A stretch of 58,480 bases of DNA, from contig CAZAPL010000033.1 of assembly GCA_964487495.1 (NCBI GenBank), forward strand, positions 1 to 58,480, in the 5' to 3' direction. The translations under genes were made by a program, and so were the position numbers. This DNA comes from an uncultured Gammaproteobacteria bacterium. GTDB taxonomy: Bacteria > Patescibacteriota > Microgenomatia > CAYGWK01. The notes under the pieces are model-generated. The model had not been told where the DNA came from, made no database searches, and saw only the letters and a program-made list of their open reading frames with translations. This document shows, in pieces, positions 10,492 to 58,480 of the stretch. Numbering within the stretch: the stretch's first letter is position 1; each line of letters opens with the position of its first letter.

Positions 10492-10499
10492 TTTCTAAA

Positions 10500-25716: not shown

Positions 25717-27379
25717 AAGAAAGAATGTTTTTTAAGGTTTGGCTTGAAAAATGGCGAGTATTTTTAAAAATTATGACTTTTGGATGGTCATAGACTTGAA
25801 AGGTTTCTTCGCTTTTATCATCGTTTATGGTTAGACCAAAAAGATTAGGGTAAGAAGAAAATTCGGCAATTTGACTGTAGCCTAATTGGCCTGAAAACAA
25901 AAGTTTGTAATAACGACTAGTTATAGGATATTTTTCCGGAAGATTTATTAAGGTTCCGTAAAGGCGGCGGCTGTTTACGATAATATAGTCTGCCTGAGAG
26001 AGTTTTTCTGAATAATAGTTAATTTTTTGAACTCCGTCTGAGTCATAAATGGTTAATTGTTCAATTTTGTATTGATTTGGGTGAAAAGGAGGAATTTCTA
26101 TTGGTAAACTGTCATCCCAATGTTCAGTTAGTAATTTTTCTCCTTTAGGGATATTTTGATAAATCCAGCGTGAGGCAGTTATTCTTGTTGATTCTTTAGC
26201 ATAAATTGAGAAAAAGGAAATTGCCCAAAAAAAAGTAGTAGTTGCCCCCAGGAAAATTAGGATTTTTCCTGCTTTGGGGAAATGTTTTCCAATTTCGTCT
26301 ATGAACCAGGAAGAAGAAATTATTAAAAATGGCAAAACAGGGAGCATGTAACGGATAAATTTAGTGTGCCATGAGCCAACATAAAGAAAATAGGAAATGG
26401 GGAAGGAAAGAAAAACGAGAAGTTTTTTGTTGCCATTTTTAATGGTCTTTATAAGGATAAGAATCGTCCCTAGAATTCCTAAAAAGGCAATTGGCCCCAT
26501 TTGCCAAAAAAAATTTTTAATTTGGAAAAGATAAGGAAGAGTTTTCTCGAATTGGAGAGTATAAACTACTCTTAGTTTGCCTGTGGCAACACCTGATTCA
26601 TAAATCATTGATTCCCAAAATTTAGGGAAGTCTAAAAAAACATAAGGAGAAAAAAAGGAAAAGACCACAAAAGCTAAAAAAAGAGAAAATAAAAATTTTA
26701 AATGGTTTTTTAAGTATTTAAAGTGATAAAGAAAATGGGCAGCTGAAGGAATTATCAAAAAAGCAAGAGATGATATTTTGGTTGCTGTTGCTAATCCCAG
26801 AATGGTCCCTATTTTAAAATAATTTTTGATTAGCGGTTTCTCGATTATTTCAAAAGTAAAATTTAAAACTAGGAAAAGCCAAAAAACAAGCATACTTTCG
26901 GTTACGCCAAAATGGGCGGTTTGGATAAGAGAAGGGCAAAAGGCAACTAAAAATGCTGATAAAAGGCCAATTTTCTCATTCCAAATTCTCTTGGATAAAA
27001 GAAATACCAGCAAAATGGTAAAGGTTGAAAGAAGAGCAGAGACACTTCGGCCAATAAGATTAATATGGGCCCAATTGGAAATCCAATTTTTATCTCTAGT
27101 TATTAGGAACAAAAAATCGCCAATTGCTCGATAAAGATAAATTGGAAAACTGCCATAGGCAAAAAATTTTGGGTTTAACTGGTCAAAAAAATGGATTCGA
27201 GAAACGGCAAGAGCAATATTTCTCTCATCGGGATGAAAGAAATGACCTTCGTCCCAGTTTAAATTATAAAAGCGCAAGAAACCACCAGAAACAGTAATAA
27301 TTAGTAATAAGTAGAGTGATTTTGATTTAAGGGGTTTAAAAATTTTCAATCTCATTGGCAATTTTTTCTCCTTCTTCAA
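25706..27379 (-). CDS. GT-C fold glycosyltransferase (GT39-like)
   Basis: 557 aa, polytopic, with FHPDERN and PIYLY loop motifs and a soluble C-terminal domain. Its start overlaps the upstream flavoprotein gene. Confidence 0.65.
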   Translation of the reverse strand: MKKEKKLPMRLKIFKPLKSKSLYLLLIITVSGGFLRFYNLNWDEGHFFHPDERNIALAVSRIHFFDQLNPKFFAYGSFPIYLYRAIGDFLFLITRDKNWISNWAHINLIGRSVSALLSTFTILLVFLLSKRIWNEKIGLLSAFLVAFCPSLIQTAHFGVTESMLVFWLFLVLNFTFEIIEKPLIKNYFKIGTILGLATATKISSLAFLIIPSAAHFLYHFKYLKNHLKFLFSLFLAFVVFSFFSPYVFLDFPKFWESMIYESGVATGKLRVVYTLQFEKTLPYLFQIKNFFWQMGPIAFLGILGTILILIKTIKNGNKKLLVFLSFPISYFLYVGSWHTKFIRYMLPVLPFLIISSSWFIDEIGKHFPKAGKILIFLGATTTFFWAISFFSIYAKESTRITASRWIYQNIPKGEKLLTEHWDDSLPIEIPPFHPNQYKIEQLTIYDSDGVQKINYYSEKLSQADYIIVNSRRLYGTLINLPEKYPITSRYYKLLFSGQLGYSQIAEFSSYPNLFGLTINDDKSEETFQVYDHPKVIIFKNTRHFSSQTLKNILSYDK

Positions 27380-28643: not shown

Positions 28644-29273
28644 TTAGAAAATAAGAATTATTGCCAGCCCAAGGAGTAAAGTGGTAATTCCTCCAAAGAG
28701 AATTCCTAAAGTGGGAGTTAAAAAGCCGGCAGAGGGAAGTTGGGGTGAGGTTGGAGTTGGGGTGGGAGTGGTTGGTCGTGGAGTGGGAGTTGGAGTCGAA
28801 GTTGGTCTGGGGGTTGGAGTTGGAGTTGGAGTGGGAGTTGAAGTTGGTCTTGGAGTTGGAGTTGGGGTTGGTCTTGGAGTTGGAGTTGGGGTAGATTCTA
28901 CTGGACCGAGAGGAGGGGGGGGGCAAATACAGTCTTCATCAAGGGGGCAATCTTCGTTATAACAAATTAATACTTGGCTACAGACTTGGCCAGGCGGACA
29001 GGGTGTTCCGCATTTTAACCCTTCTTGACAATCGGTGTCTTTTGAGCAACCTTCTCGACAACCTTTTTTTTCTATGGATATTTCGAATAATTTGGTGCAT
29101 TGAGGAGCTGGTGTTTCTTCGTAAACTGCAGGGGCTGGTTGGGGGACAGTTGGGGCTATTGGTTGTTTTTTTGTTTGGTAAAGTTTTAAAGCGGTAAAAA
29201 TGGCAACCGATGTTAAAATCAACGTAGCAAAAGAAATCAAAACTAAATGCCAACTTTCTTTTATTTTTTCCAT
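28644..29273 (-). CDS. exported Cys-rich protein with (TP)n-RP repeat linker and C-terminal LPSAG sorting-like signal
   Basis: N-terminal TM/signal anchor, 11 Cys within about 60 aa and a TPTPTPRP repeat. It ends in LPSAGFLTPT followed by a hydrophobic tail. Confidence 0.7.
   Translation of the reverse strand: MEKIKESWHLVLISFATLILTSVAIFTALKLYQTKKQPIAPTVPQPAPAVYEETPAPQCTKLFEISIEKKGCREGCSKDTDCQEGLKCGTPCPPGQVCSQVLICYNEDCPLDEDCICPPPPLGPVESTPTPTPRPTPTPTPRPTSTPTPTPTPTPRPTSTPTPTPRPTTPTPTPTSPQLPSAGFLTPTLGILFGGITTLLLGLAIILIF
28743..28895 (-). repeat. imperfect short tandem repeat encoding the Thr-Pro/Arg-Pro linker
   Basis: The plus strand reads reiterated GGAGTTGGAGTT / GGGGTTGG / GGTCTTGG units. 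It generates spurious ORFs in other frames and on the other strand. Confidence 0.85.
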
Positions 29274-29276
29274 TTT

Positions 29277-30374
29277 TTATTTCCAGCCTGAGTTTTGGTT
29301 ATAAACCATTGCTTCAATTTTGTATTTTCCTGATTTTCCAAATGTATAGGTGATATAAAACTCTCCATTTTGGTTTTTGATTGTTGTTTCTTGCCAAGCG
29401 CCAACCTGACCATCGACTGTTATCCTAAAGCGAGCCTTGGTGATCTTTTGATTGTTTGTTGCTGATCCTTTAGTGGCAAGATAATAATTTTGGTCGGGTT
29501 TTAGAAATGGCTCTGCAACTTCTTTCCAATCAGTTTCGTAAATTTTGACATATTCACATTTGACTGTTATAGGGGGGGTTGGGGTTGGAGAAAGAGAAGG
29601 AATTGTTCCGCTAACAAATCTTACTTTTAGATTATCTCGACAATCATCTTTGTCTTCATCTTTGTCTTTGCCAACAAAGGTTTTAACGATAAGAGTTCCT
29701 CCGACTTTACCGCCATTAAATTTGTTGAATAAATCATTTAAGTTAATGACGTATATTCCTCCCTGGGTTTTTTGAACGGTAAAATCATGTCTGCAGTTTT
29801 TATCACACCCACAAAAACCGTCATAGGCCAAAAAACCATTCCCATAATTGCAATTATCAGTATTTACATAATTTGGTGAATATTCAGCCCAGCGATAGAT
29901 CCCTTGAGGAAGGGGGCCTTGGTTGTCCATAAAAGAGGCAAATTTGAAAAGATAAATACCATTTTCTTGGGGGAATTGATCAATTTTTAAGTATTTATTA
30001 GTTTCCGCTGGGTTGCTTCCTGAGCCTTCACTCCAGCCCTGAAGGGTTAAAACTTTAGTTGCCATTTCACCTCCAGTTATACCTCCACAAGTAACTGTTG
30101 CCTTTTCTCTTATTTCTTGTCTTTGTTGGGTTAAATAAACAGCCAAGGGGATTGAGGCAAGGAGAAAAAATACACCAACTGAAGCCAAAATTATTTGCTT
30201 TTTAGACAGTCTTTTTGGCGGTTTTTTTAAAGATATTTCTTCCGGGTTTTTTAATTGGGCAGGAGGAGGAATACCCGGCGGAGGTTCTGGAGGTGGTGCA
30301 CCTGGAGCAGGAACAATAACTTCTTCCTTTTTATCATCTTGCGGTTGACTTGGATTGTTAGGCAAATCGTTCAT
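29277..30374 (-). CDS. type II membrane protein with Pro-rich cytoplasmic head and Cys-containing beta-rich ectodomains
   Basis: PAPGAPPPEPPPGIPPP N-terminus and a single TM. The ectodomain has CNYGNGFLAYDGFCGCDKNC, a short PTPTPP linker and an Ig-like C-terminal domain. No family recognised. Confidence 0.6.
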   Translation of the reverse strand: MNDLPNNPSQPQDDKKEEVIVPAPGAPPPEPPPGIPPPAQLKNPEEISLKKPPKRLSKKQIILASVGVFFLLASIPLAVYLTQQRQEIREKATVTCGGITGGEMATKVLTLQGWSEGSGSNPAETNKYLKIDQFPQENGIYLFKFASFMDNQGPLPQGIYRWAEYSPNYVNTDNCNYGNGFLAYDGFCGCDKNCRHDFTVQKTQGGIYVINLNDLFNKFNGGKVGGTLIVKTFVGKDKDEDKDDCRDNLKVRFVSGTIPSLSPTPTPPITVKCEYVKIYETDWKEVAEPFLKPDQNYYLATKGSATNNQKITKARFRITVDGQVGAWQETTIKNQNGEFYITYTFGKSGKYKIEAMVYNQNSGWK

Positions 30375-31762
30375 GATTTAGTTTTCCCATAAATTAAACT
30401 TAAAAAAAATAGACCTCCAAAGAGAAGGACTATTCCCATTGTAAAGAGGAGAAAGGTTGGTGTCAAGTAGCCAGAAGTAGGAATGCCGCTTTCTGTTGAG
30501 GGTCGAGAAGTTCGTGGAGAGGGAGTAGGAGAAGAGGTAGCGACAGGAGTGGGAGTTAAGGTTAGAGTAGGTGTTGGAGTTAGAGTGGCTGAGGGGCTGG
30601 CGGTAAAAGCCGGGAGGGTATTTTCGCCGGCAGCCAAAACAGTAAAGGTTCTGGAAATTGTTTTTCCTCCATAACTAACTTTAATAGTATGGGTTCCTGG
30701 TGCGAGGTCCTCTGGAGGAATAAAATTCCATTCTCCATTTTTATTTGTTTTGACGGTTCCTGTATAAATTGGTGATTCAATGGTAATCTGGAGAGTTTGG
30801 TTTGCAGGACCACTTCCTATAATTTCTGGTCTTGAGGTGGCAACTTTTTCGTTTTGCTCCGGGCTTATTATGGTTATTTGATTTGGACTGGCTCCTCCTG
30901 TGGAAATAGGAATTTCTTCAAAAGGGAATTTAGAGGAAGGAGTCGCCTGATTTTCGGATTGACTGGGAGTGGAGGTAGGAAGTAAGGGCGTTTTTTCATT
31001 TGATTGTAAAGAGGAAGTTTGTCGAAAATCGTAGTTTCTCCCTAAAGTAATTTCTGGAATAGGGTTGTCATTTTTAGTGGTAGTTATTATGGTTGATGCC
31101 CCCAAAGAGGCTCCTTGAACAAAAATCTCTAAAATTTGGGCTTCTTTATCGTAGGTTGCATAGTTTGAAAGATTAGAAGATAAAGCGGTGTTTAAGGGGA
31201 TAACGAAACTTCCTGAAGAGCGAACCAGCGTTGATTGAGGAGTTGTGTTGGTAAGGCTTAAATAAACAATTACTCCTTCTGCTGGGGTACCGTCTTGTTT
31301 GAGAATTATACCCGAGACAACATCGCTTGGGGGAGGGGTTCCGGGGATGACTGGGGCGGTAGTTACCTCATAAGGTTTCCCGGAATTATCAAAAATTTTT
31401 CCTCCTGAACTAATTTTGAAAAAATAAATAGTTTTTGGCTTTAGATTTTTTAAAGTCACATGATGAGTTTGGAAGTTACCGGTACTGCCAGATACTTGAT
31501 CTCGATCGTCGGCAAAGGTTTGTCCCAAAGAAGGCGTTTCCCCAAATTGGACAAATCCGCTTGTTTCTTTATCAGTAATCCAAGAAACGGTAAAGGAAGA
31601 AGAAGAAATATTGGTAATTTTTACTTGGTTAGGAGTAATTTCTGGAGAGGCTCTTAAAAGAAATACTTGGTTGTTTTTAATAAGGAACACCCCACTAAAA
31701 ATACCAATGACTAAAAAGAAAATTGCCAAAATTGTTGGAATTCTTTTTTCTTTATTAAACAT
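30371..31762 (-). CDS. exported multidomain surface protein (FN3-like, CarboxypepD_reg-like, Ig-like) with PT linker and IPTSG sorting-like signal
   Basis: Signal anchor and FTVSWITDKETSGFVQFGE...HHVTLKNLKPKTIYFFKI (FN3 / purple-acid-phosphatase N-domain-like), then VSGIILKQDGTPAEGVIVYL. It ends in IPTSGYLTPT plus TM plus GKTKS. Confidence 0.7.
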   Translation of the reverse strand: MFNKEKRIPTILAIFFLVIGIFSGVFLIKNNQVFLLRASPEITPNQVKITNISSSSFTVSWITDKETSGFVQFGETPSLGQTFADDRDQVSGSTGNFQTHHVTLKNLKPKTIYFFKISSGGKIFDNSGKPYEVTTAPVIPGTPPPSDVVSGIILKQDGTPAEGVIVYLSLTNTTPQSTLVRSSGSFVIPLNTALSSNLSNYATYDKEAQILEIFVQGASLGASTIITTTKNDNPIPEITLGRNYDFRQTSSLQSNEKTPLLPTSTPSQSENQATPSSKFPFEEIPISTGGASPNQITIISPEQNEKVATSRPEIIGSGPANQTLQITIESPIYTGTVKTNKNGEWNFIPPEDLAPGTHTIKVSYGGKTISRTFTVLAAGENTLPAFTASPSATLTPTPTLTLTPTPVATSSPTPSPRTSRPSTESGIPTSGYLTPTFLLFTMGIVLLFGGLFFLSLIYGKTKS

Positions 31763-31764
31763 TT

Positions 31765-32100
31765 TTACATCCCCTCAGTTTCAGTTATAGTAGGTGTCTC
31801 GGATTCTGCTTCTGCAATAGTAGGTGTTGGTGTCGGCATTAAGGTTGGAGTTTTAGTCGGCGTGGAAGTTGGCGTTGGCAAAATGAATTCTTCTTCTTTT
31901 ATCTGAAGACGTTTTGAGAGATTTTCTAAAGTTTCCATATCAACTTGAGGATTAAGAGGCGTAAGCTGCTCTTGAACATTTTTTGGAATTTCTACCTTAT
32001 TAAAGGCACGATAGACGTCAAAGCCAATCCAGGTTAAGATAGTAATGGCAGTTAAGATGGCAATATAAAATAAGTTTTTTGAAAATTTTGATTCTTTCAT
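31765..32100 (-). CDS. small membrane-anchored protein with PT-rich tail
   Basis: 111 aa with an N-terminal TM and a C-terminal PTPTSTPTKTPTLMPTPTPT stretch. Confidence 0.55.
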   Translation of the reverse strand: MKESKFSKNLFYIAILTAITILTWIGFDVYRAFNKVEIPKNVQEQLTPLNPQVDMETLENLSKRLQIKEEEFILPTPTSTPTKTPTLMPTPTPTIAEAESETPTITETEGM

Positions 32101-32103
32101 AGT

Positions 32104-32748
32104 TTATTCTAAGAAATAAAATTTTCCTGAAATATTTAGGTTTATAGCTTCTGTTTCTCCACCCTCTGTACTTTCTTTTTTGGAAAAAGACGAGGAATCA
32201 ATAGTAATAATTCTTCTCAGTTGGTTTAAGGAATCAAGGAATTTTTCTAAATCTTCAAAATTTCCGTTTAAAGAAAGGGAAAAAGATAAATTTTGAAGAG
32301 AGGAGGTTTTCTTTGTCTCTTTTTTTGTAGGATCTTTGCCAAGAAGAACAGAAGGCTCAAAGGAAAGGGAATTGATAGTAAGGTTATTCTTTTGGGCTAA
32401 AGTTTCAAACTGGAGAGTTACTTGAGAAAGAGAAGGAGTTGGGGGGATGACTTCGTCAATTAAGGGTAAGTACGGTTCGGCAAGAGTATAATTTGATTGG
32501 GCAGAGGAAAGGGTGTTGATCTTTTTTTGTAATTGATTATTGATTTCTTTTTGGGTTTGGATTTCTCTATATAAAGAAACTATAGTAATGAGTGTGGGTC
32601 TTATGGCAAAAACAGCAAAAAAAGAGACAGATAAAAGAGTTAAGATCAAGCCGGTGTAGACAACCGTTTCTTTTTTTTGATAAATTTTTGGAATTTCTTT
32701 AAAATAGCGACTATAGCGATGATATTCAGTTAAGGTTCTGGGTATCAT
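32104..32748 (-). CDS. PilO-like bitopic membrane protein
   Basis: Short cytoplasmic head, one TM, a coiled coil (QKEINNQLQKKINTL) and a ferredoxin-like C-terminal domain (LSLNGNFEDLEKFLDSLNQLRRIITID). It follows the PilN-like gene with a 4-nt overlap. Confidence 0.55.
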   Translation of the reverse strand: MIPRTLTEYHRYSRYFKEIPKIYQKKETVVYTGLILTLLSVSFFAVFAIRPTLITIVSLYREIQTQKEINNQLQKKINTLSSAQSNYTLAEPYLPLIDEVIPPTPSLSQVTLQFETLAQKNNLTINSLSFEPSVLLGKDPTKKETKKTSSLQNLSFSLSLNGNFEDLEKFLDSLNQLRRIITIDSSSFSKKESTEGGETEAINLNISGKFYFLE

Positions 32749-33305
32749 TTTTGTTTTATCCCTCCAGGTAAATATTTTGCGGTTAAACTAAATTTAATTC
32801 CTATTTCCTCAGGCTTTTTAAAAATACTTGAGAGATTAACATCGGTAAATTCTGGCGAATTAGAAAAACCAGCGACAAAACCTCCAAGCCCTTCTTCTGA
32901 AAGTGCTAATCCGTTTATTTTTATTTCCTTCGTTTCCTTTTCGTAATTTAAAGTGGAGAAAATAATATCCCCAGGAGTAAAAGAAGAAATAGTAGAAATT
33001 ATTGAGGTAATTTTGACTTGATCTTTTTCAAGTTCCTTTATCTTCGAAATTTTTTCCTGAAAAGATTTAAATTCTTTTTCAAAACCTGAATAAGAATTTA
33101 TAATTGCTTGTTTTTGTTTAATTTGCTCATAAAGATTAGTAAGATCTCGATCTAATTTAAAACGAGAGATAAAAGCGATAATAACCACTAATTCGGTAAA
33201 AATAACGATCCATCTACCAACTGAAAGAAGCCAAAGTAAAAATTTACCTAAAGGTTTCTTTTCAAATTCTTCCTTTGGTATGAGATTAATTTCTTTGTTG
33301 GGCAT
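32745..33305 (-). CDS. PilN-like bitopic membrane protein
   Basis: N-terminal EINLIP (the INLLP-type PilM-binding motif), one TM, a coiled coil and a C-terminal alpha/beta domain of PilN size. Confidence 0.6.
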   Translation of the reverse strand: MPNKEINLIPKEEFEKKPLGKFLLWLLSVGRWIVIFTELVVIIAFISRFKLDRDLTNLYEQIKQKQAIINSYSGFEKEFKSFQEKISKIKELEKDQVKITSIISTISSFTPGDIIFSTLNYEKETKEIKINGLALSEEGLGGFVAGFSNSPEFTDVNLSSIFKKPEEIGIKFSLTAKYLPGGIKQK

Positions 33306-49061: not shown

Positions 49062-51161
49062 ATGGATGCGTCAAAACTGCCAATAAAAATTTCTTCAAGG
49101 AAAACTTACCGTCGTTCTTACAAAATTCGTCTTAAAAAATCAACCATTTTTTCTATTGGAAGCGTTTTGTTCCTTTCTTTTTCTTTTTTAACGATTCTTT
49201 CCTTTTTAAGACAAGGAATTTTACTGGTTAAATTGAATAATCTTCTTTTGAATAATTTTGGTTTTGGTTCTTTTTTTATTCCGTTTATTTTTTTGGTAGC
49301 AGGTTTAATGTTAACTAAGATTAAATCTCCGGTAAACGAACCTCATATTTTAGTTGGTTCTTTTCTTTTAATGTTTTCTTTTATGGGAATTTTTAGAAGC
49401 GGAAATTTAGGGGAGGAAATTTGGTTTGGGATGGTGGGGATGATTACCAAGGTTGGGGCATTTTTAGTTCTTTCTGGGGGAATTTTAATTGGGATTATGG
49501 TTTTATTTAATACTTCTCTTGACCAAATAATTATTTTTTTTATTAATTTCTTCAAAAATCTAAAAAAATTTTTTATTGCCTTACCAAAGAAAGAAATATC
49601 CCATTTGAGGGTAGAGGAAAGTTCGGCTTTACGTTTATCAGAAACAAGAGAGGAAAAAATTTCTCCTTCGCTTAAAGAAAAAGAAGAAATTTCTCCAACT
49701 ATCCCAATTCATTCTTTTGCTCAAGATAAAATTTGGGAATATCCCCCCCTTTCTCTTCTTCAAGATATTGCCGGGGGCAAGGCTGATCGGGGGGATGTAA
49801 AGACTAATGCGGCTATTATCGAAAAAACACTTGAGTCATTTGGTATTTCTGCCAGTGTAGTTGAGGTAAATCCTGGTCCAGCCGTTACTCAATATGCTTT
49901 GGAGGTGGCGCTGGGGACAAAACTCTCAAAAATTACCACCTTGGCTGATAATTTGGCTCTTGCTTTGGCTGCTCCTCATGGTCAAATAAGAATAGAGGCA
50001 CCCATTCCCGGAAGATCTTTAGTTGGAATTGAGCTTCCCAATCGTTCTATAGAATTTGTTACCTTAAAGAAAATGCTTGAATCTGATGTTTTGAAAAATG
50101 CTAAAAGCAAACTTACTGTGGCCTTAGGTCTTGATGTTTCTGGAAAACCGGTAGTAGCCGATATTGCGCGAATGCCCCATGTTTTGATTGCTGGTTCAAC
50201 CGGAAGTGGGAAAACAGTTCTTCTAAATTCTTTTATTGCTACTTTGCTTTTTAGAACTACTCCAAACGAAGTTAAACTTATTTTGGTTGATCCAAAAAGA
50301 GTGGAACTTGTTCAGTATAATGGTGTCCCCCACCTTTTAACCCCAGTTATTGTTGAACCAGAAAAAGTTCTTTCTGCTTTAAAATGGGCAATTTCTGAAA
50401 TGGATCGCCGCTATAAACTTTTTGCTGAGGTGGGGGCAAGAAATATTGATTCTTATAATGAACTTTCCGGGTTTATGGCAATGCCTTATATTGTGATTAT
50501 TATCGATGAGTTAGCCGATATTATGCTTTTTGCTCCAGTTGAAGTTGAGGATACCATTTGTCGAATTGCCCAAATGGCTAGAGCCACTGGGATCCATTTG
50601 GTTATTTCTACCCAAAGGCCATCAGTAGATGTTTTAACTGGGCTTATTAAAGCCAATATTCCCTGCCGAATTTCTTTTGCTGTTTCTTCAATGGTTGATT
50701 CTCGGGTTATTTTAGATCAACCTGGGGCAGAAAAACTTTTGGGGCGAGGAGATATGCTTTATATTCCTCCAGATCAGGCCAAGCCAACCAGAATTCAGGG
50801 AGTATTTGTTTCTGACCCGGAAATTCAAAGATTAATCGAGTTTTTAAGGAAAAAGGCATCGCCTTCTTATACCGAGGAGGTAGTTACAATGCCTGTTAGT
50901 GTAAAGCGTTTTGGCGAAAAGGGAGAAATAGAAGAGAAAGATGAACTTTTTGAAGAAGCATTAAGAACTGTTTGCCAGTATGACAGGGCTTCTGCCTCTT
51001 TGCTTCAAAGACGTCTTTCAATTGGATATGCCAGAGCAGCCAGAATTTTAGATCAACTTGAGGAAGCAGGTGTTGTTGGGCCGGGTGAAGGATCAAAGCC
51101 CCGGGAGGTATTAATTAGAAATCCTGAAGAATTTTTAACTTCCAAAGATCAATCCTCATGA
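49062..51161 (+). CDS. ftsK: DNA translocase FtsK/SpoIIIE
   Basis: N-terminal TM segments, motor domain with GSTGSGKT and IIIDELADIM, and a C-terminal gamma wHTH (SASLLQRRLSIGYARAARILDQLE). Confidence 0.95.
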   Translation: MDASKLPIKISSRKTYRRSYKIRLKKSTIFSIGSVLFLSFSFLTILSFLRQGILLVKLNNLLLNNFGFGSFFIPFIFLVAGLMLTKIKSPVNEPHILVGSFLLMFSFMGIFRSGNLGEEIWFGMVGMITKVGAFLVLSGGILIGIMVLFNTSLDQIIIFFINFFKNLKKFFIALPKKEISHLRVEESSALRLSETREEKISPSLKEKEEISPTIPIHSFAQDKIWEYPPLSLLQDIAGGKADRGDVKTNAAIIEKTLESFGISASVVEVNPGPAVTQYALEVALGTKLSKITTLADNLALALAAPHGQIRIEAPIPGRSLVGIELPNRSIEFVTLKKMLESDVLKNAKSKLTVALGLDVSGKPVVADIARMPHVLIAGSTGSGKTVLLNSFIATLLFRTTPNEVKLILVDPKRVELVQYNGVPHLLTPVIVEPEKVLSALKWAISEMDRRYKLFAEVGARNIDSYNELSGFMAMPYIVIIIDELADIMLFAPVEVEDTICRIAQMARATGIHLVISTQRPSVDVLTGLIKANIPCRISFAVSSMVDSRVILDQPGAEKLLGRGDMLYIPPDQAKPTRIQGVFVSDPEIQRLIEFLRKKASPSYTEEVVTMPVSVKRFGEKGEIEEKDELFEEALRTVCQYDRASASLLQRRLSIGYARAARILDQLEEAGVVGPGEGSKPREVLIRNPEEFLTSKDQSS

Positions 51162-51802
51162 AGACTGTTGGTGAGATTTTGAGAGAAACCCGAGAAAGAA
51201 AAAAAATCTCTCTTTTAGAGGCAGAAAAAGCCACTAAAATTAAGGCTCGCTTTTTGGAAGCCCTAGAGAGAAATGATTTTTCAGAAATTAACGAGGCAAC
51301 AGTTATTAAGGGATTTATTAAAAATTATGCTGAGTATCTTGGTCTTTCTTCTTTTGAGGTGATGGCGGTATTTAGACGAGATTTTGCAGAAAATAAAGAT
51401 GGTCAAATTTTACCTCACGGTCTTTATAAACCTTTATCCCAAGTAAAATCTATTTGGACGCCAAGGCACACATTTGGATTGTTAATTGGCTTTATTTTTT
51501 TATCTCTAATTGGCTATTTACTTTTTCATTTTTTTGGCTTTTTTAGCCCCCCTCTTTTGGAAATTTATTCTCCTTTAGAAGGTGAAGTTTTAGAAAGTTC
51601 CGAAGTTATAGTTAAAGGGAAAGTTGATCCCGACGCTAGTGTTTCAATTAACGGAGATTTGGCTTTTGTTTTTGGAGACGGCTCTTTTGAAAAAAAAATT
51701 TCTCTATCAAAAGGAAAAAATAAAATTTTGGTTGAGGCTGTTTCCAGACAGGGTAGAAAAAATACTAAAGAAATAACAGTTGAAATAAGACCACCAGATT
51801 AA
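51158..51802 (+). CDS. RodZ-like HTH membrane protein
   Basis: N-terminal HTH (VGEILRETRERKKISLLEAEKATKIKARFLEALE), one TM and a beta-rich C-terminal domain. Confidence 0.65.
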   Translation: MKTVGEILRETRERKKISLLEAEKATKIKARFLEALERNDFSEINEATVIKGFIKNYAEYLGLSSFEVMAVFRRDFAENKDGQILPHGLYKPLSQVKSIWTPRHTFGLLIGFIFLSLIGYLLFHFFGFFSPPLLEIYSPLEGEVLESSEVIVKGKVDPDASVSINGDLAFVFGDGSFEKKISLSKGKNKILVEAVSRQGRKNTKEITVEIRPPD

Positions 51803-52325: not shown

Positions 52326-54071
52326 GTGATAGCCAAAAATCTTCGGAATAAATTTCTAGATTTTTTTGTTAAAAGAGGGCATAGGGTAATTCCCAACGTT
52401 TCCCTAATTCCCGAAAATGATTCAACCGCTCTTTTTATCTCGGCGGGAATGCATCCTTTGGTTCCTTATCTTTTGGGAGAACCTCATCCTTTGGGTAAAA
52501 GGCTTTGTTCAGTCCAGCGGTGTTTGCGGACTGATGATATAGATTTGGTGGGAAGTTCTTGGCACCATACCTTCTTTGAAATGCTTGGTAATTGGTCTTT
52601 GGGTGATTATTGGAAAGAGGAGGCCATTTCTTGGTCTTTTGAATTTTTGGTAAAGGAACTTAATCTTGATCGGAAAAGAATTTATGTTTCTTGTTTTGGC
52701 GGAGATAGAAATATTCCTCGTGATGAAGAATCGGCAAAAATTTGGCAAAAAATTGGAATTCCTAAGGAGAAAATTTATTTTTATGGAAAAAAGGAAAATT
52801 GGTGGGGACCGGTAGGTGAATTTGGCCCTTGTGGGCCTGATACGGAAATTTTCTACGATCTTACGGGAAATCCTTGTGGTTTGGATTGTCGACCGAATGA
52901 TAACTGTGGTCGATTTTTAGAAATTTGGAATAATGTTTTTATGGAATATGAAGTAAATAGAAAAGGAGAGGTTGTTTTTTTAAAACAAAAAAATGTAGAT
53001 ACGGGAATGGGTTTGGAAAGGATGGTTTCTATTCTTTCTAAATTGGGAGATGATTATCAAACAGAGCTTTTTAAGGGGATAGTTCAATTAATTGAATCGC
53101 TTTCCGGAGAAGATTATAGAAAGGAGAAGAATCAGAGACCAATAAGAATTATTGCTGATCACGCAAGGGCGGCTACATTTTTAATTGCCGATGGTGTTTT
53201 TCCTTCTAATTTAGAAAGAGGTTATATCTTGAGAAGATTAATAAGGCGAGCAGTAAGATTTGGGAGAATGATTAATTTGAAAAAACTTTCTATTCCAAAA
53301 ATTGCCGAAGAAGTAATTCAAAAGATGAAAGATGAATATCCAAAATTGGAAGAACATAGAGAAAAAATTATAGAAACAATAGCCAATGAAGAAGAAAAAT
53401 TCCAAAAAACCTTAGAAAAAGGGCTTAAAGAAGTAGAAAGGTATGAAAAAATTGACGGCAAAACCGCTTTTTATCTTTATGAAACTTATGGTTTTCCTTT
53501 GGAGATGAGTGAGGAAATTGCTTTTGAAAAAGGACAGAAAATTGACAAAAAAGAGTTTGAGAAGGAATTTAGGAAGCATCAGGAGATTTCAAGGTCTGGA
53601 GCAAACAAAAAATTTGCTGGGGGATTAGCCACCCATTCCCAAGAAGCAATAAAACTTCATACTGCTACCCATCTTTTAAATGCCTCCTTACGTTATGTTC
53701 TTGGGTCGCACGTTTTACAGAAAGGTTCAAATATAACTAATTCAAGGCTTCGTTTTGATTTTCTTAACCCAAAAAAACTTACCCCTGAAGAATTAAGGAA
53801 AGTCGAGGATTTAGTGAATCAGAAAATCAGGGAAAACCTTGAAGTAAAGATGGAAATAATGAGATTTGAGGAGGCCAGAAAAAAAGGGGCGATATCTGTT
53901 CCTGGCGAAAGTTATCCGGAAAAGGTTAAGGTTTATTCAATTGGCGATTTTTCTTGCGAGATTTGCGGCGGTCCCCATGTTAACTTTACAGGGGTTTTAG
54001 GAAGGTTTAAGATTATAAAAGAAGAGGGGGCAGGAGCAGGAATTAGAAGAATCTATGCTGTTTTAGAATGA
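52326..54071 (+). CDS. alaS: alanine--tRNA ligase (short form lacking C-Ala domain)
   Basis: LRNKFLDFFVKRGH, FISAGMHP, QRCLRTDDID and WNNVFMEY motifs, with editing motifs HTATHLL and CGGPHV. 581 aa, GTG start. Confidence 0.93.
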   Translation: MIAKNLRNKFLDFFVKRGHRVIPNVSLIPENDSTALFISAGMHPLVPYLLGEPHPLGKRLCSVQRCLRTDDIDLVGSSWHHTFFEMLGNWSLGDYWKEEAISWSFEFLVKELNLDRKRIYVSCFGGDRNIPRDEESAKIWQKIGIPKEKIYFYGKKENWWGPVGEFGPCGPDTEIFYDLTGNPCGLDCRPNDNCGRFLEIWNNVFMEYEVNRKGEVVFLKQKNVDTGMGLERMVSILSKLGDDYQTELFKGIVQLIESLSGEDYRKEKNQRPIRIIADHARAATFLIADGVFPSNLERGYILRRLIRRAVRFGRMINLKKLSIPKIAEEVIQKMKDEYPKLEEHREKIIETIANEEEKFQKTLEKGLKEVERYEKIDGKTAFYLYETYGFPLEMSEEIAFEKGQKIDKKEFEKEFRKHQEISRSGANKKFAGGLATHSQEAIKLHTATHLLNASLRYVLGSHVLQKGSNITNSRLRFDFLNPKKLTPEELRKVEDLVNQKIRENLEVKMEIMRFEEARKKGAISVPGESYPEKVKVYSIGDFSCEICGGPHVNFTGVLGRFKIIKEEGAGAGIRRIYAVLE

Positions 54072-54090: not shown

Positions 54091-56322
54091 TTGAAATTAA
54101 AAATGGAACTGCCTAACATTATTGAAAAAATAACTCATCAAGAAGAAAGAGAAAAAAGAGAGTATTTTTTTGCTTTGCAAATCTGGGATGAAGGAGTAAA
54201 AAGTGCTATTTGGACAATAGAAGAAAAGGGGATAAAGGTGGTGGTTTTGGGAAGCCAGGAAGAATGGGAGGGGGGAGTTGATGAGCTGATTGCTGCTGTT
54301 GATAAAAGTCTTTCCGTTGCTTTTGAACGTTTCGAAGGGATAGGAGAGGAACCTTCGCGTGTTATTTTTGGTCTTTCTGATGATTGGATAAGTGGGGATA
54401 AAATAATTCCCGAAAAGCAAGAAATGCTTTCTGCTCTTTGCCAAAGATTAGACCTTAAACCAATTGGTTTTGTCTCCATTTTTGATGCTTTAAATTATCG
54501 AATTAAAGAAATCGAGGGAGTCCCCCCTTCAATGATTTTAATTAATTTAGGTAAGAAAGCCATTAATTTAGCGGTAATAGAGGCAGGGAAAATTTATAAA
54601 GTGGAAAAAGTTTTGCGGAGTGATAATCTTGGGGCAGACGTTTATGAAGGGCTTTTAAGATTTGAAGAAGTAGAAAATCTACCCTCAAGAATGGTTCTTT
54701 TCAATGGTGAGGAGACAGAAGAAGCAAGACAGATATTAATTAGTTTCCCTTGGCAAACTCCCTCTCCGGAAGGAAAAGAACTTTCTTTTCTTCATTTTCC
54801 AAAAGTTGAAATTTTGCCCTATGATTTTGATATTAATGCCATTTCTTTAGTTGGCGGGAAAGAAACCGCGGCGTTTTCAGGTTTTAAGGTTGATTTAGAG
54901 CCGAAAGAAAGAGAAAAAAAGGAAAGTTTGGAATTTTCTAAAGAAAAAGAATTTGAGAAAGGAGAGAAGGAAGATAATTTGGGCTTTGTTAAAGGCAAGG
55001 ATGTGGCTTATTTTACTCCTAAAATGCCAAAAGAAGAAGAAATTCAGGAAGAAGGGGCGGCCAAAAAAACTGATTTTTTGATTGAGGAGGAAAAACCAAA
55101 AACAAAACCTTCTTTTGAATTTATAAGGGGGAATTTTTTTGGCAAAAAAATTTTTGGTTTTTTTTCTTCATTCCTTCGGCCACTTGAGATAGGAGGGGGA
55201 ATAATATTTTTAATCGCTTTAAGTTTATTGTTTTTTCTTTGGAATATTCCCCAGGCAAAAATAACTGTTTTTTTCTCACCACAGGTTCTTGAAAAAGAAT
55301 TAGAAATTATTATTGATCCAAATCAAGAAACGATTGATGAAAAAAATTTAATTTTGCCAGGTCAGGTAATTGAGGTGGAAATAGGAGGAGAAAAAAACAT
55401 TTCTACTACTGGTAAAAAAACTGTAGGAGAAAAAGCCCGAGGAGAAATAACTATTTATAATCGAACAGATACCAAAAAGGTATTTCCCGAGGGGACAATT
55501 ATTATTGGCCCTGGCGAATTAAAATTTGTTCTTGATAGAGAAGTTGAAGTGGCTTCAAAAACTCCTAATTTAGAAACAGGAGTGGATGAATGGGGAGAGG
55601 CAAAAGTTGAGGTTAGTGCCTTTGATATTGGTGCTCAATATAACTTGGCAGCAAATTCCCAATTTCGTTTTAAAGATTTCCCCACCACTTCTTTTTTAGG
55701 AAAAAATGAATCTGCCTTTACTGGAGGGAGTAGTCGCGAGATTTCTGCAGTTTCAGAAGAAGATCAAAAAAATCTTCAGAAAAAACTTCTAGGCGAATTA
55801 GAAGAAAATGCCAAAAATGAAATTTTATTAAAAGTCCCCCAAGGAAAGAAATTGGTGGAAGAGGCAATTTCTTCTTCGATTACGTCTGTTTCTTTTGATC
55901 ACAAGGTAGGGGAAGAAGCACAAACTTTGAATTTGAAATTGAAAGTTAAGTTTTCTGGTTTGGTTTTTGATCAAAAAGAATTACTTGGTCTTATTAAAAA
56001 TTCTTTATCCTCCCAAATCCCAGAAAATTTCGAATTTAAGGATGAAGAGATTTTAACTCGTTTTGAGTTTAAGGAAAAGAAAAATGACGGCAGCGTCTTG
56101 TTTAGCGTTTTTCTCCAGGCAAATTTACTTCCAAAATTGGATACGGCAGAGATTATTAAAAATATTAAAGGTAAAAGACCTAAAATGGCAAAGAGTTATT
56201 TTTCTAATATTTCTGGCTTTTCCGATTTGGAAATTTCTTTTAGTCCAAAACTGCCTAAAATTTTGGAAGTTATTCCAAAGCAAGAAGATAAAATTTCTTT
56301 GGAGTTAAGGAGTAGAAAATAA
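54091..56322 (+). CDS. bitopic membrane protein: actin-like (PilM/FtsA-like, degenerate) cytoplasmic domain, E/K linker, TM, beta-rich ectodomain (possibly baseplate-J-like)
   Basis: ALQIWDEGVKSAIW and ILINLGKKAINLAVIEAG resemble ASKHA phosphate-1 and phosphate-2 strands. TM is GGIIFLIALSLLFFLW. The ectodomain has TTGKKTVGEKARGEITIYNRT...FPEGTII. The ORF-track start is TTG 54091, with an ATG at 54103. Confidence 0.45.
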   Translation: MKLKMELPNIIEKITHQEEREKREYFFALQIWDEGVKSAIWTIEEKGIKVVVLGSQEEWEGGVDELIAAVDKSLSVAFERFEGIGEEPSRVIFGLSDDWISGDKIIPEKQEMLSALCQRLDLKPIGFVSIFDALNYRIKEIEGVPPSMILINLGKKAINLAVIEAGKIYKVEKVLRSDNLGADVYEGLLRFEEVENLPSRMVLFNGEETEEARQILISFPWQTPSPEGKELSFLHFPKVEILPYDFDINAISLVGGKETAAFSGFKVDLEPKEREKKESLEFSKEKEFEKGEKEDNLGFVKGKDVAYFTPKMPKEEEIQEEGAAKKTDFLIEEEKPKTKPSFEFIRGNFFGKKIFGFFSSFLRPLEIGGGIIFLIALSLLFFLWNIPQAKITVFFSPQVLEKELEIIIDPNQETIDEKNLILPGQVIEVEIGGEKNISTTGKKTVGEKARGEITIYNRTDTKKVFPEGTIIIGPGELKFVLDREVEVASKTPNLETGVDEWGEAKVEVSAFDIGAQYNLAANSQFRFKDFPTTSFLGKNESAFTGGSSREISAVSEEDQKNLQKKLLGELEENAKNEILLKVPQGKKLVEEAISSSITSVSFDHKVGEEAQTLNLKLKVKFSGLVFDQKELLGLIKNSLSSQIPENFEFKDEEILTRFEFKEKKNDGSVLFSVFLQANLLPKLDTAEIIKNIKGKRPKMAKSYFSNISGFSDLEISFSPKLPKILEVIPKQEDKISLELRSRK

Positions 56323-56324
56323 AT

Positions 56325-57017
56325 ATGCATTATCTTTATATTAAAAAAATTCCCAAACAAACATCGGTGGCTATAAATTTAAAATTTTTGCCATTTTTTT
56401 TACTTTTTTTAGGTTCGTTTTTAATTTTGAGTGTTAGCAGCCCAATTATTTTTTATCAATTTTTTCTTTCACCTTCTTTTTCGGAAGTCCTAGAGCCGGT
56501 ACCTTCCGGCATGGAGGTACTTGGTGAATATGAAGAGGAAGATTATACAAAAATTTCTAATTGGTTTATTAACGATCAACCCCTTCCTCCCTTACCCTCA
56601 AAAATTACTCATTATAAGATTTCTATTCCTAAACTTAAAATTAGTGATGCCGTAGTTCAAGTAGGAGGAGTTGATCTTAAAGAAAGTCTTATTCATTATC
56701 AAGGAACTGCGTTTCCTGGTCAGTTTGGGAATACGGTTATCTTTGGGCATTCAGTTTTGCCTCAATTTTTTAATCCTACAAACTATTTAACTATTTTTTC
56801 TACTTTGCCAACCTTAAAGGTTAAAGATGAAATTTTTGTTGACTTTGATGGGGTTCGTTATAAATACGTAGTTGAAGAACTTAAGGAGGTTTCTCCTTCA
56901 GATATTTCGGTTTTGGAGCAAAGATACGATGATTCTTATCTGACTTTAATTACTTGTGTCCCTCCTGGTACTTACCTTAAAAGATTGGCTGTTCGGGCAA
57001 GACTTGAAAAAATATGA
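56325..57017 (+). CDS. sortase-family transpeptidase
   Basis: N-terminal TM, GNTVIFGHS (His), LTLITCVPPG (TLxTC Cys) and RLAVRA (Arg). Confidence 0.85.
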   Translation: MHYLYIKKIPKQTSVAINLKFLPFFLLFLGSFLILSVSSPIIFYQFFLSPSFSEVLEPVPSGMEVLGEYEEEDYTKISNWFINDQPLPPLPSKITHYKISIPKLKISDAVVQVGGVDLKESLIHYQGTAFPGQFGNTVIFGHSVLPQFFNPTNYLTIFSTLPTLKVKDEIFVDFDGVRYKYVVEELKEVSPSDISVLEQRYDDSYLTLITCVPPGTYLKRLAVRARLEKI

Positions 57018-57370
57018 AGATGCTTGGCATAGATTTTGGGAAGAAAAAAATAGGATTGGCAATTTTTAATGGTTTTCTTGTTGAACCCTTGATGGTGATA
57101 AGGGATAAAAAAAGAATTTTAGATATTTGCCAGGAGGAAAAAATAGAAAAAATTGTTTTGGGAATTCCTGAGGGAAAGATGGTTCAAAAAATTAAGAAAT
57201 TTAAGGGATGGCTTGAGCAAAAAACCGGTCTTCCAGTTGATTTTCAAGATGAGACCTTGACGAGCAAAGAAGCAGTTGCTAAAATGAAAGAGATAGGCAG
57301 AAAAATTAAAGAGGAGGATGCTATTTCAGCGGCTTTAATCCTTGAGGCCTATCTTGAGAAAAATGTTTAA
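57014..57370 (+). CDS. ruvX: Holliday-junction-resolvase-like nuclease RuvX/YqgF
   Basis: MLGIDFGKKKIGLAI start and a DETLTSKEA motif. 118 aa. Confidence 0.85.
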   Translation: MKMLGIDFGKKKIGLAIFNGFLVEPLMVIRDKKRILDICQEEKIEKIVLGIPEGKMVQKIKKFKGWLEQKTGLPVDFQDETLTSKEAVAKMKEIGRKIKEEDAISAALILEAYLEKNV

Positions 57371-57563
57371 AAAAATTATTGCTCCGGTTCAAGCCTGGCT
57401 TTTATCTCAAGGAAAATGTGTTGGTTGCGGAGCACCTCTTGCTAAAGGTAAAAGAGAAAAAAAGAATAAAGATCAAGAAAAAGTAACTTGTAAATGCGGG
57501 CGAATTTATATTTTTGACAAAAACACCCAAAAATACCGCCGCGCCCTCTTTGAGGAAGTGTGA
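57363..57563 (+). CDS. small zinc-ribbon protein
   Basis: CVGC...CKC pairs in a 66-aa basic protein. ATG at 57363 overlaps the ruvX end. Confidence 0.45.
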   Translation: MFKKIIAPVQAWLLSQGKCVGCGAPLAKGKREKKNKDQEKVTCKCGRIYIFDKNTQKYRRALFEEV

Positions 57564-58480
57564 GAAAGATAAAGTCTTCAATTATTTTTTTGGTTTTTTT
57601 GGTTTTTTTATTTTTGGTCTGTTTTTCTTGGTGGCAATGGGCAACAGCCCCTTTGTGTAAAAACAATTGTCAATCAAAAATTTTTGTTATCTCCAAGGGA
57701 GAAAGTCTTTCTTCAGTTGCTAAACGTCTTGAAGAAGAAAATTTAATTCGTTCTTCCTTTGCTTTTCAGATTTTGGCAACCAAAGAAGGAATAGTTCGAA
57801 AAATTCAGGCTGGAGATTTTAGATTAAATCCTCAAATGACGCCTTTGAAAATTGCCAGAGAATTAACTCATGGAACTCTTGACCGTTGGGTAACGATTAT
57901 TGAAGGTTTGAGAAGAGAACAAATTGCCGAAAAACTTGAGGAAGCAGGTTTTGAAAATTTCCAAAAAGAGGATTTTTTAGAAGGATCGAAAAATTTAGAA
58001 GGAAAACTTTTCCCCGATACCTATCTTATTCCCAAAGATGCCAATGCCCAAAAAATAATTGAGATTTTGACTAAAAATTTTACTAAAAAAACACCTATGC
58101 CTTCAAAGGAGGTTTTAATTTTATCTTCAATTGTTGAACGGGAGGCAAAATTTGAAGAAGACAGGCCAATTGTGGCAGGAATTCTTTTAAAAAGACTTAA
58201 AAATGGTTGGCCGCTTCAGGCAGATGCAACCGTTCAGTATGCGGTTGGGAGCAAAAGGTGTGGAAGTCAGAATAAAGGTTGTGAATGGTGGCCAAAAAAA
58301 CTAACTAGAGAAGATTTAAAAATAAATTCTCCTTACAATACCTATGTTTATTCTGGTTTACCTCCTTCCCCTATTTGCAATCCAGGTCTTAAGGCAATAG
58401 AGGCAGTTTTAAATCCGGTTGAAACCGATTTTTGGTTTTACCTTTCGGATAAAGAAGGGAAAATGCACTATGCCAAAACC
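57560..58480 (+). CDS. mltG: endolytic murein transglycosylase MltG (YceG-like), 3' end beyond the window
   Basis: Not in the ORF track because no stop occurs before the window end. Hand translation from GTG 57560 gives a TM, then LSSVAKRLEEENLIRS, GKLFPDTY, SIVEREA and SPYNTYVYSGLPPSPICNPG. Confidence 0.88.
   Translation, partial: MRKIKSSIIFLVFLVFLFLVCFSWWQWATAPLCKNNCQSKIFVISKGESLSSVAKRLEEENLIRSSFAFQILATKEGIVRKIQAGDFRLNPQMTPLKIARELTHGTLDRWVTIIEGLRREQIAEKLEEAGFENFQKEDFLEGSKNLEGKLFPDTYLIPKDANAQKIIEILTKNFTKKTPMPSKEVLILSSIVEREAKFEEDRPIVAGILLKRLKNGWPLQADATVQYAVGSKRCGSQNKGCEWWPKKLTREDLKINSPYNTYVYSGLPPSPICNPGLKAIEAVLNPVETDFWFYLSDKEGKMHYAKT

Follow-up and report, generated by a model that had tools for sequence, protein, structure and literature searches.

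Why does a membrane protein with an actin-like cytoplasmic head and an outer domain resembling a phage baseplate protein stand among housekeeping genes of a Patescibacterium, directly ahead of a sortase? The question is raised by a 58,480-nucleotide stretch of DNA (contig CAZAPL010000033.1 of assembly GCA_964487495.1; GTDB lineage Patescibacteriota, Microgenomatia), referred to herein as the window, in which alaS and ruvX-mltG are separated by two genes, one encoding this membrane protein, which we call X, and one encoding the sortase. We found that X is a Microgenomates-specific fusion of proteins that are encoded by adjacent genes in other Patescibacteria, in the same alaS/ruvX-mltG slot. 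We read X as a fused actin-like/baseplate-J-like scaffold that spans the envelope and is tied to the cell-wall machinery. To this reading as a whole we assign a probability of about 0.5; its structural and evolutionary part is held with high confidence, and its functional part with considerably less.

The open reading frame (ORF) obtained mechanically for X covers 54091-56322, starts with TTG and encodes 743 aa, the length given in a preliminary description of this DNA. As the consensus of the homologues begins with MEL... and an identical database protein (P0001; 100% identity) is 739 aa long, the ATG at 54103 is, judged from the sequence, most likely the true start. Residue numbers nevertheless refer to the 743-aa form. 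An AlphaFold2 model of X, built from 53 homologues, had a mean predicted local distance difference test score (pLDDT) of 85.5, with values above 90 in both folded parts. X and its parts are as follows:

54103-56322, plus strand: gene X, 739 aa from the ATG at 54103; fused ASKHA (acetate and sugar kinase/Hsp70/actin)-linker-transmembrane-baseplate-J-like ectodomain protein.
54148-54888, plus strand: minimal ASKHA core, residues ~20-266, subdomains 1A and 2A (AlphaFold2, Foldseek, hhalign).
54910-55170, plus strand: disordered E/K-rich linker, residues 274-360 (pLDDT <50; its length differs among homologues).
55177-55245, plus strand: single transmembrane helix, residues 363-385 (AlphaFold2 helix; hydrophobic GGGIIFLIALSLLFFLW).
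55252-56313, plus strand: J-like ectodomain, residues 388-741 (Pfam, profile against the PDB, Foldseek).

The E/K-rich linker and single membrane span of the preliminary description thus reappear in the model, as do its two folded domains, and the peptides that it quoted from them, IWDEGVKSAIW, ILINLGKKAINLAV and GEKARGEITIYNRT...FPEGT, are all found in X.

That description had proposed an actin-like fold for the N-terminal part, and the model agrees. The head (residues about 25-262) consists of two successive beta-beta-beta-alpha-beta-alpha-beta-alpha, RNase-H-like units with pLDDT >90, and a Foldseek search of the PDB matched it with probability 1.0 to PPX/GppA, BT_3980, EutJ, HgdC, FtsA and PilM. 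In the model, then, the N-terminal domain of X is an ASKHA/actin-like fold, without the 1B/1C or 2B inserts. The 2B subdomain of FtsA binds the FtsZ tail, and the 1C subdomain of PilM forms the groove to which PilN binds. The phosphate-1, phosphate-2 and adenosine motifs are lost from the head, and their glycines are not conserved. Only the second phosphate Asp had been described as replaced; it is, but so is the first, the two columns being occupied in the family of X by E25/Q15/K5 (phosphate-1) and G16/N14/S7 (phosphate-2). Mean column identity is 46% in the head versus 45% in the ectodomain. Since the head is as conserved as the ectodomain even though its nucleotide-binding positions are not kept, it appears to be maintained by selection for a purpose other than catalysis. 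When the family profile was compared with PDB sequences, the head matched no ASKHA protein, including no solved FtsA, PilM or MreB, and the assignment of this fold therefore rests on structure prediction together with an hhalign match to the split-form protein described below. Neither the curated FtsA models (PF14450, TIGR01174) nor PilM_2 matched X of the window or any of its 53 relatives.

The similarity of the ectodomain to baseplate J, also proposed earlier, was found at the level of sequence and of fold. Pfam Baseplate_J (PF04865) scored 19.6 bits on X (E = 6e-4; residues 446-550, nt 55426-55740), short of its gathering score of 21.1, and matched 40 of the 53 relatives at E≤0.01 (best 2.9e-7). 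The family profile found the diffocin triplex protein CD1371 (TRI-2, 8v3w_E) in the PDB with E = 0.0016. By Foldseek, the whole ectodomain matched the baseplate wedge chains of phi812 (9euf_I), diffocin (8v3w), cyanophage A-1(L) (8kea) and XM1 with probability 1.0 across about 350 columns, and also the GlxA barrel; in the viral structure library BFVD, dozens of 'Baseplate J' proteins aligned over about 350 columns. Wedge proteins of the baseplate-J (gp6/gp47) type, from phages and contractile injection systems (CIS), and the GlxA barrel are its only structural neighbours.

Because its structural relatives are baseplate proteins only, and NCBI names relatives 'baseplate J/gp47 family protein', the ectodomain gene could be a prophage or CIS remnant that has no cellular role and lies in this neighbourhood by coincidence. 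The surroundings speak otherwise: in about 90 loci no other phage or CIS gene was found, the neighbours are housekeeping genes, and their composition matches. The gene is moreover conserved across classes of the candidate phyla radiation (CPR), with 12,455 representatives, its product is membrane-anchored in the AlphaFold2 model, and its counterpart in Southlakia is called essential after T0. With no phage genes nearby and a housekeeping context, we regard the remnant reading as effectively excluded.

The genes around X are arranged head to tail:

52326-54071, plus strand: alaS, short-form alanine-tRNA ligase, 581 aa (NCBIfam NF002436, 806 bits, above cutoff; Pfam tRNA-synt_2c, 1.6e-139).
56325-57017, plus strand: membrane-anchored sortase, 230 aa (Pfam Sortase, 88.2 bits).
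57014-57370, plus strand: ruvX, YqgF-type nuclease (Pfam RuvX, 81 bits; TIGR00250 above cutoff).
57342-57563, plus strand: 73-aa zinc-ribbon-like ORF in the ruvX/mltG interval (CxxC...CxC).
57560-58480, plus strand: 5' part of mltG/yceG, endolytic transglycosylase (tblastn, 76% identity, E = 9e-157, to YceG of L005, the nearest related locus).

The ORF map bears out the coordinates of alaS, X, the sortase and ruvX given in the preliminary description, together with the gap of 2 nt between the stop of X and the start of the sortase and the 4-nt overlap (ATGA) of the sortase stop with the ruvX start. The start of mltG/yceG is probably GTG at 57560, with GAGGA just 5' of it, and its reading frame runs past the end of the window. 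The small zinc-ribbon-like ORF overlaps both ruvX and mltG, and a gene of 66 aa occupies the same spot in another locus (L004, 7825-8025). A scan of the window for promoters and terminators gave nothing above chance.

This arrangement is widespread. More than 110 full-length homologues of X were collected; those with a named source come from Patescibacteria/Microgenomates, and every one of these is labelled hypothetical or uncharacterised. An exhaustive profile search with the full-length alignment returned 12,455 representatives at E≤1e-3 and 4,447 at E≤1e-30, and its best 150 matches are all full-length fused proteins. Synteny was sampled in 80 species-representative loci obtained by a genome scan with an alignment of 16 closer X sequences; those with informative names belong to Shapiro-, Ames-, Chisholm- or Daviesbacteria or to 'Microgenomates'. 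The clade-wide order is FtsK, RodZ-like, small genes, AlaS, X, sortase, RuvX, YceG. The sortase lies directly 3' of X in 75 of the 80 loci, and ruvX takes that place in the remaining five, which are the most divergent. The pairing noted in the window is thus kept in related genomes and is usually translationally coupled: the junction is a -4 overlap in 37 of the 75 and lies within 30 nt in 67. The GC content of X and the sortase (0.30-0.38) is like that of the flanking genes. Since there are more than 110 full-length homologues and 12,455 representative matches, the order is kept in 80 species-level genomes and GC content is flank-like, the arrangement is not due to chance. A recent horizontal insertion of X and the sortase was considered and ruled out, as their composition resembles the flanks and the arrangement is clade-wide.

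Several features of these loci deserve mention in their own right. In the window, FtsK (49062-51161) overlaps by 4 nt a RodZ-like gene (51158-51802), whose product combines HTH_25, a transmembrane helix and a Glucodextran_B-type beta-sandwich; most Microgenomates loci keep the two genes upstream of alaS-X. Many species-representative metagenome-assembled genomes with a Microgenomates-type X locus (L005, L007, L011, L013 and others) are titled 'uncultured Gammaproteobacteria' or 'Pseudomonadales' in third-party annotation records, labels that look like placeholders or errors.

The origin of X became apparent outside Microgenomates. Searching with a profile of the ectodomain alone led to proteins of ~540-640 aa that are 24-27% identical (E about 1e-34) and come from Saccharibacteria and further CPR lineages. 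The model of such a split-form membrane protein has a small alpha/beta (STAS-like) domain, a linker, a transmembrane helix and an ectodomain as in X, the structural neighbours of which are again only baseplate proteins and GlxA. The split-form order is alaS, an FtsA-like gene of 420-430 aa, the membrane protein, ruvX, yceG and a LysM/CHAP gene. The pair stands in the alaS|ruvX-mltG slot in loci L085-L087, L089 and L091. Among ten sampled split-form loci, the FtsA-like gene is directly 5' of the ectodomain gene in six, and RuvX/YceG directly 3' in seven. In one lineage (L088:4725-12623) the pair lies directly upstream of mreB-mreC-mreD-PBP2, which replaces ruvX-mltG, and in others the FtsA-like gene is a few genes away or absent and RuvX-YceG is fused. 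None of the sampled split-form loci, all from outside Microgenomates, has an adjacent sortase. In some CPR lineages, RuvX and YceG/MltG form a single ORF directly 3' of the split-form ectodomain gene (L092:5529-6917; L090:7700-9325), a fusion that hints at a functional link between two seemingly unrelated proteins.

The N-terminal domain of X is homologous to the FtsA-like protein of the slot. hhalign paired the two at 97.6% (E = 4e-12), with gaps exactly at 1C and 2B, and they have an N-terminal peptide and a PW..LPF motif in common. With the X N-domain as query, hmmsearch found four slot FtsA-like proteins at 7e-16 to 1e-12, while the MreB and DnaK controls were silent. In 56 Microgenomates loci, the reciprocal FtsA-like hidden Markov model (HMM) matched nothing but the N-terminus of X, and the flanks of these loci gave no stand-alone FtsA-like copy. 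The split-form FtsA-like proteins retain invariant DIGT, DxGGGTTD and GGGA motifs and a C-terminal helix. Among NCBIfam models FtsA scores best on them, at 126 bits (equivalog cutoff 176) versus 45 for PilM; in Pfam, FtsA reaches 60 and PilM 36 bits, and the PilM_2 threshold is passed. X is thus the fused form of the pair, with its actin core standing where the split-form membrane protein has its small STAS-like cytoplasmic domain. The preliminary description had seen X and the sortase as a two-gene unit inserted into a conserved neighbourhood. This does not hold, as the slot pair occurs in other CPR lineages without a sortase and five of the 80 Microgenomates species have none at the locus; the evolutionary unit is the pair of FtsA-like and J-ectodomain proteins in the slot, and the sortase is a later, Microgenomates-specific add-on.

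Gene order and lengths are the same in one genetically tractable relative, Southlakia epibionticum, according to Tables S1 and S2 of Wang et al. 2023 (PMC10633639), which also give transposon sequencing (Tn-seq) calls of essential (ES), non-essential (NE) or growth defect (GD):

SEML1_0657: alaS; ES/ES/ES.
SEML1_0656: annotated 'PilM', FtsA-like; NE/NE/GD.
SEML1_0655: 'baseplate J/gp47 family protein'; NE/ES/ES, normalised reads falling from 373 (T0) to 34 (T1) and 24 (T2).
SEML1_0654: RuvX; NE/ES/ES.
SEML1_0653: MltG; NE/NE/NE.

The call for SEML1_0655 fits the class II essential genes as defined in that study, which are essential only after T0, and the call for SEML1_0656 is a growth defect. 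Both genes are flagged there as core families and as Patescibacteria-enriched, and neither is mentioned in the main text (PMC10633639). The published domain parse of SEML1_0655, a SpoIIAA/STAS-like N-domain, a barrel and gp6 C-terminal domain III (PMC10633639), agrees with the split-form model built here. Southlakia also encodes a canonical FtsA with an SHS2 domain beside FtsZ (SEML1_0174/0175, essential) and a canonical PilM beside a PilN-like gene (SEML1_0104/0105) (PMC10633639). As these two pairs are encoded elsewhere in the genome, the FtsA-like protein of the slot is a third paralogue.

These paralogues bear on two other readings of X. In the first, X would be the divisome FtsA of Microgenomates, a permanently membrane-anchored FtsZ tether with an added outer domain. 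Its homology to an FtsA-family protein and the FtsK gene upstream are consistent with this, and the transmembrane helix could stand in for the amphipathic membrane helix of FtsA. X, however, lacks 2B and 1C and has lost its ATP motifs, and the split orthologue of Southlakia coexists with the canonical, essential FtsA-FtsZ and is itself called only a growth defect, so that we consider a divisome role very unlikely. No ftsZ was found among the ORFs of the window that were scanned.

In the second reading, X would be the platform protein of a machine of pilus or secretion type, in which a PilM-like head and a PilN-like membrane part are fused as in GspL. A PilN-like protein with an N-terminal INLIP motif is encoded in the window on the minus strand (32745-33305), followed by PilO (32104-32748) and with no PilM alongside, and X had been suggested as its missing PilM. 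The GspL-like architecture and the PilM structures among the Foldseek matches would be in keeping with this, as would the split-form head, which scores above the Pfam PilM_2 threshold and bears the annotation PilM in Southlakia. Against it, X has no 1C subdomain and with it no PilN-binding groove, and the bit scores given above place the split-form head well on the FtsA side in both NCBIfam and Pfam. The split-form orthologue coexists with the separate canonical PilM-PilN pair in Southlakia, and in a complete Microgenomates genome the type IV pilus locus includes a canonical PilM. Near X, none of about 90 loci has a gene for a pilus ATPase, a pilin or PilC, and PilN/PilO is 21 kb from X on the opposite strand. 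The suggested PilM-PilN partnership is therefore not upheld, and we judge the pilus-platform reading as a whole improbable.

The sortase that follows X is, by its sequence, catalytically intact. Its Pfam score of 88.2 bits compares with a cutoff of 26.6, and the catalytic residues His142 (56748-56750), Cys211 (56955-56957) and Arg220 (56982-56984) are conserved in at least 90% of 76 orthologues. Among solved structures, 4d70 and class C pilus sortases are nearest to it; none of the curated NCBIfam classes A-F reaches its cutoff on the protein, the best being class C with 59 bits versus 160. A sortase is reported to be near-ubiquitous in Microgenomates, and a complete Microgenomates genome is reported to encode one. 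Two candidate substrates are present in the window:

28644-29273, minus strand: candidate sortase substrate, 209 aa, with a signal/anchor, Cys-rich domain, PT-rich stalk, LPSAG and transmembrane helix.
30371-31762, minus strand: candidate sortase substrate, 463 aa, with fn3/Ig-like domains (Pfam fn3, Big_13, Pur_ac_phosph_N), PT-rich stalk, IPTSG, transmembrane helix and KTKS tail.

A sorting-signal scan of all fetched loci gave no convincing substrate besides these two. X itself was ruled out as a substrate, since no sorting signal is present at its C-terminus, which folds back into the ectodomain. The candidates lie just downstream of the orphan PilN/PilO genes, in a minus-strand cluster (28644-33305) that continues after PilN/PilO with a 111-aa PT-rich membrane protein and proteins of 463, 365 and 209 aa; that PilN/PilO should lead a cluster of sortase-type substrates is unusual. 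The cluster is flanked by several large membrane genes of glycosyltransferase type on the minus strand (23668-27379 and 9187-11984: DUF2298, two PMT_2, GT2, GT4/MraY-like and UbiA), which suggests that the PT-rich surface proteins are glycosylated.

The sortase also permits a reading in which X is its dedicated partner, the ectodomain presenting substrates or forming the base of a sortase-built fibre or protein layer under the control of the head. Of 80 species, 75 have the two genes adjacent, and mostly the stop codon of X overlaps the sortase start; this argues for such a partnership, as do the class C pilus sortases among the nearest solved relatives, the two candidate substrates with PT-rich stalks and the reported near-ubiquity of a sortase in Microgenomates. 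Yet the Saccharibacteria ectodomain protein is fitness-critical without an adjacent sortase, and five Microgenomates species hold the fused X with none at the locus. The near-invariant Lys443 of X is conserved in sortase-less lineages too, no pilin-like gene adjoins the pair, and X carries no sorting signal of its own. We therefore regard a dedicated partnership as unlikely.

We return to the trans-envelope scaffold. The ancestral parts of X are an FtsA-family actin-fold protein and a bitopic membrane protein with an ectodomain of the J (gp6/gp47) fold. Their fusion suggests that the actin-like and membrane proteins normally bind each other where they are separate, in parallel to PilM-PilN and to GspL as the fused form. 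The degenerate head of X may serve passively for dimerisation or docking in the cytoplasm and not as an ATPase; the actin-like domain of GspL is not known to be a working ATPase either. Outside the membrane, the J-like ectodomains could self-associate as wedge proteins do, giving a scaffold within the zone of the wall. The most likely role of the module is to organise or position the assembly of the cell wall or envelope, as suggested by its fixed association with mltG, by mreBCD-PBP2 in one lineage, by LysM/CHAP in Saccharibacteria and by the RodZ-like and FtsK genes upstream. The sortase, added later and translationally coupled, would be co-expressed with X and probably brings the anchoring of surface proteins (the LPSAG and IPTSG candidates) to the same sites.

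Several points weigh against this reading. The Tn-seq fitness calls are the sole direct functional evidence for any member of the family, and SEML1_0655/0656 were equated with the split-form loci by synteny, lengths and annotation, not by sequence alignment. In the same data MltG is non-essential whereas the ectodomain gene is called essential (PMC10633639); since the calls differ, the two proteins are not simply co-dependent. The position in the slot is weak evidence for a wall role because alaS-ruvX-mltG is an old conserved neighbourhood, and the mreBCD context is found in one lineage only. The ideas of an oligomerising ectodomain and a docking head come from analogy. Foldseek TM-scores (template modelling scores) of the ectodomain against baseplate proteins are low, at about 0.2, with a root-mean-square deviation of about 30 Å; the individual domains correspond to those of baseplates but their mutual arrangement may differ. 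Finally, X does not need the sortase, as five of the 80 species and all sampled split-form loci have none adjacent.

A bolder version, which we put forward tentatively and think less probable than the scaffold as worded above, is that pair and fusion represent a new Patescibacteria-specific machine spanning the envelope. A J-like ring or lattice outside the membrane would be positioned from inside by its actin-like partner, and wall growth or the epibiotic cell surface would depend on it. It would be a baseplate wedge protein exapted by the cell, and nothing in the known divisome, elongasome, pilus or secretion systems would correspond to it.

The locus matters because Patescibacteria account for much of bacterial diversity and the way in which they build their envelope is poorly known. 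The fusion is Rosetta-stone evidence that the actin-like and baseplate-like membrane proteins act as one unit. The family has 12,455 representative matches, and its ectodomain gene is called essential after T0 in a tractable relative, yet we found no study of it. A phage baseplate fold may here be in use by the cell itself, and the X locus offers a clue to the possible site of action of the near-universal Microgenomates sortase. The combination had been called unfamiliar in the preliminary description, and we likewise found no description in the searchable literature of a cellular membrane-anchored baseplate-wedge ectodomain with a third FtsA-family paralogue, or of the sortase-linked fusion; searches for baseplate J with sortase or CPR gave nothing relevant. 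The CPR Pam pilus preprint deals with another locus.

The individual folds, and the logic of coupling an actin-like protein to a bitopic one, are already known. PilM-PilN and GspL resemble X in that a cytoplasmic actin-like domain is coupled or fused to a bitopic membrane protein with an outer domain. X, however, is without a 1C-type subdomain, has a J-like outer domain and not the ferredoxin-like fold of PilN/GspL, is linked to no ATPase, pilin or PilC, and has a head nearer to FtsA-like proteins than to PilM. With FtsA, X has the ASKHA 1A/2A core in common, its head descending from an FtsA-family protein, but it lacks 1C (SHS2), 2B and the amphipathic helix, has lost the ATP motifs, is fused to a transmembrane helix and ectodomain, and does not lie beside ftsZ. 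The baseplate wedge proteins gpJ, T4 gp6, Mu gp47 and diffocin TRI-2 have in common with X a multi-domain fold of about 350 residues, to which the barrel and the region of the GG(T/S) motif belong, and a sequence signal that is weak yet consistent; X differs from them in being cellular, membrane-anchored and placed in a housekeeping locus, in having no sheath, tube, gp25 or gpI partners and, given the low TM-scores, probably in the arrangement of its domains. The sortase has the fold, His-Cys-Arg triad and N-terminal membrane anchor of the class C and class D sortases of Gram-positive bacteria; unlike them it scores below the curated class cutoffs, its gene follows that of X in a housekeeping operon and is not grouped with pilins or substrates, and its candidate motifs are LPSAG and IPTSG. 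Closest to X is the SEML1_0656/SEML1_0655 type of pair (also in loci L085-L089 and L091), with which it has in common the slot, a J-like ectodomain behind one transmembrane helix and a homologous actin-fold head. The pair differs from X in being two genes with no sortase alongside, in having as its head a complete FtsA-like protein, which retains 1C, 2B, an intact set of ATP motifs and a helix at the C-terminus, and in the small STAS-like cytoplasmic domain that its membrane protein has in place of the actin core.

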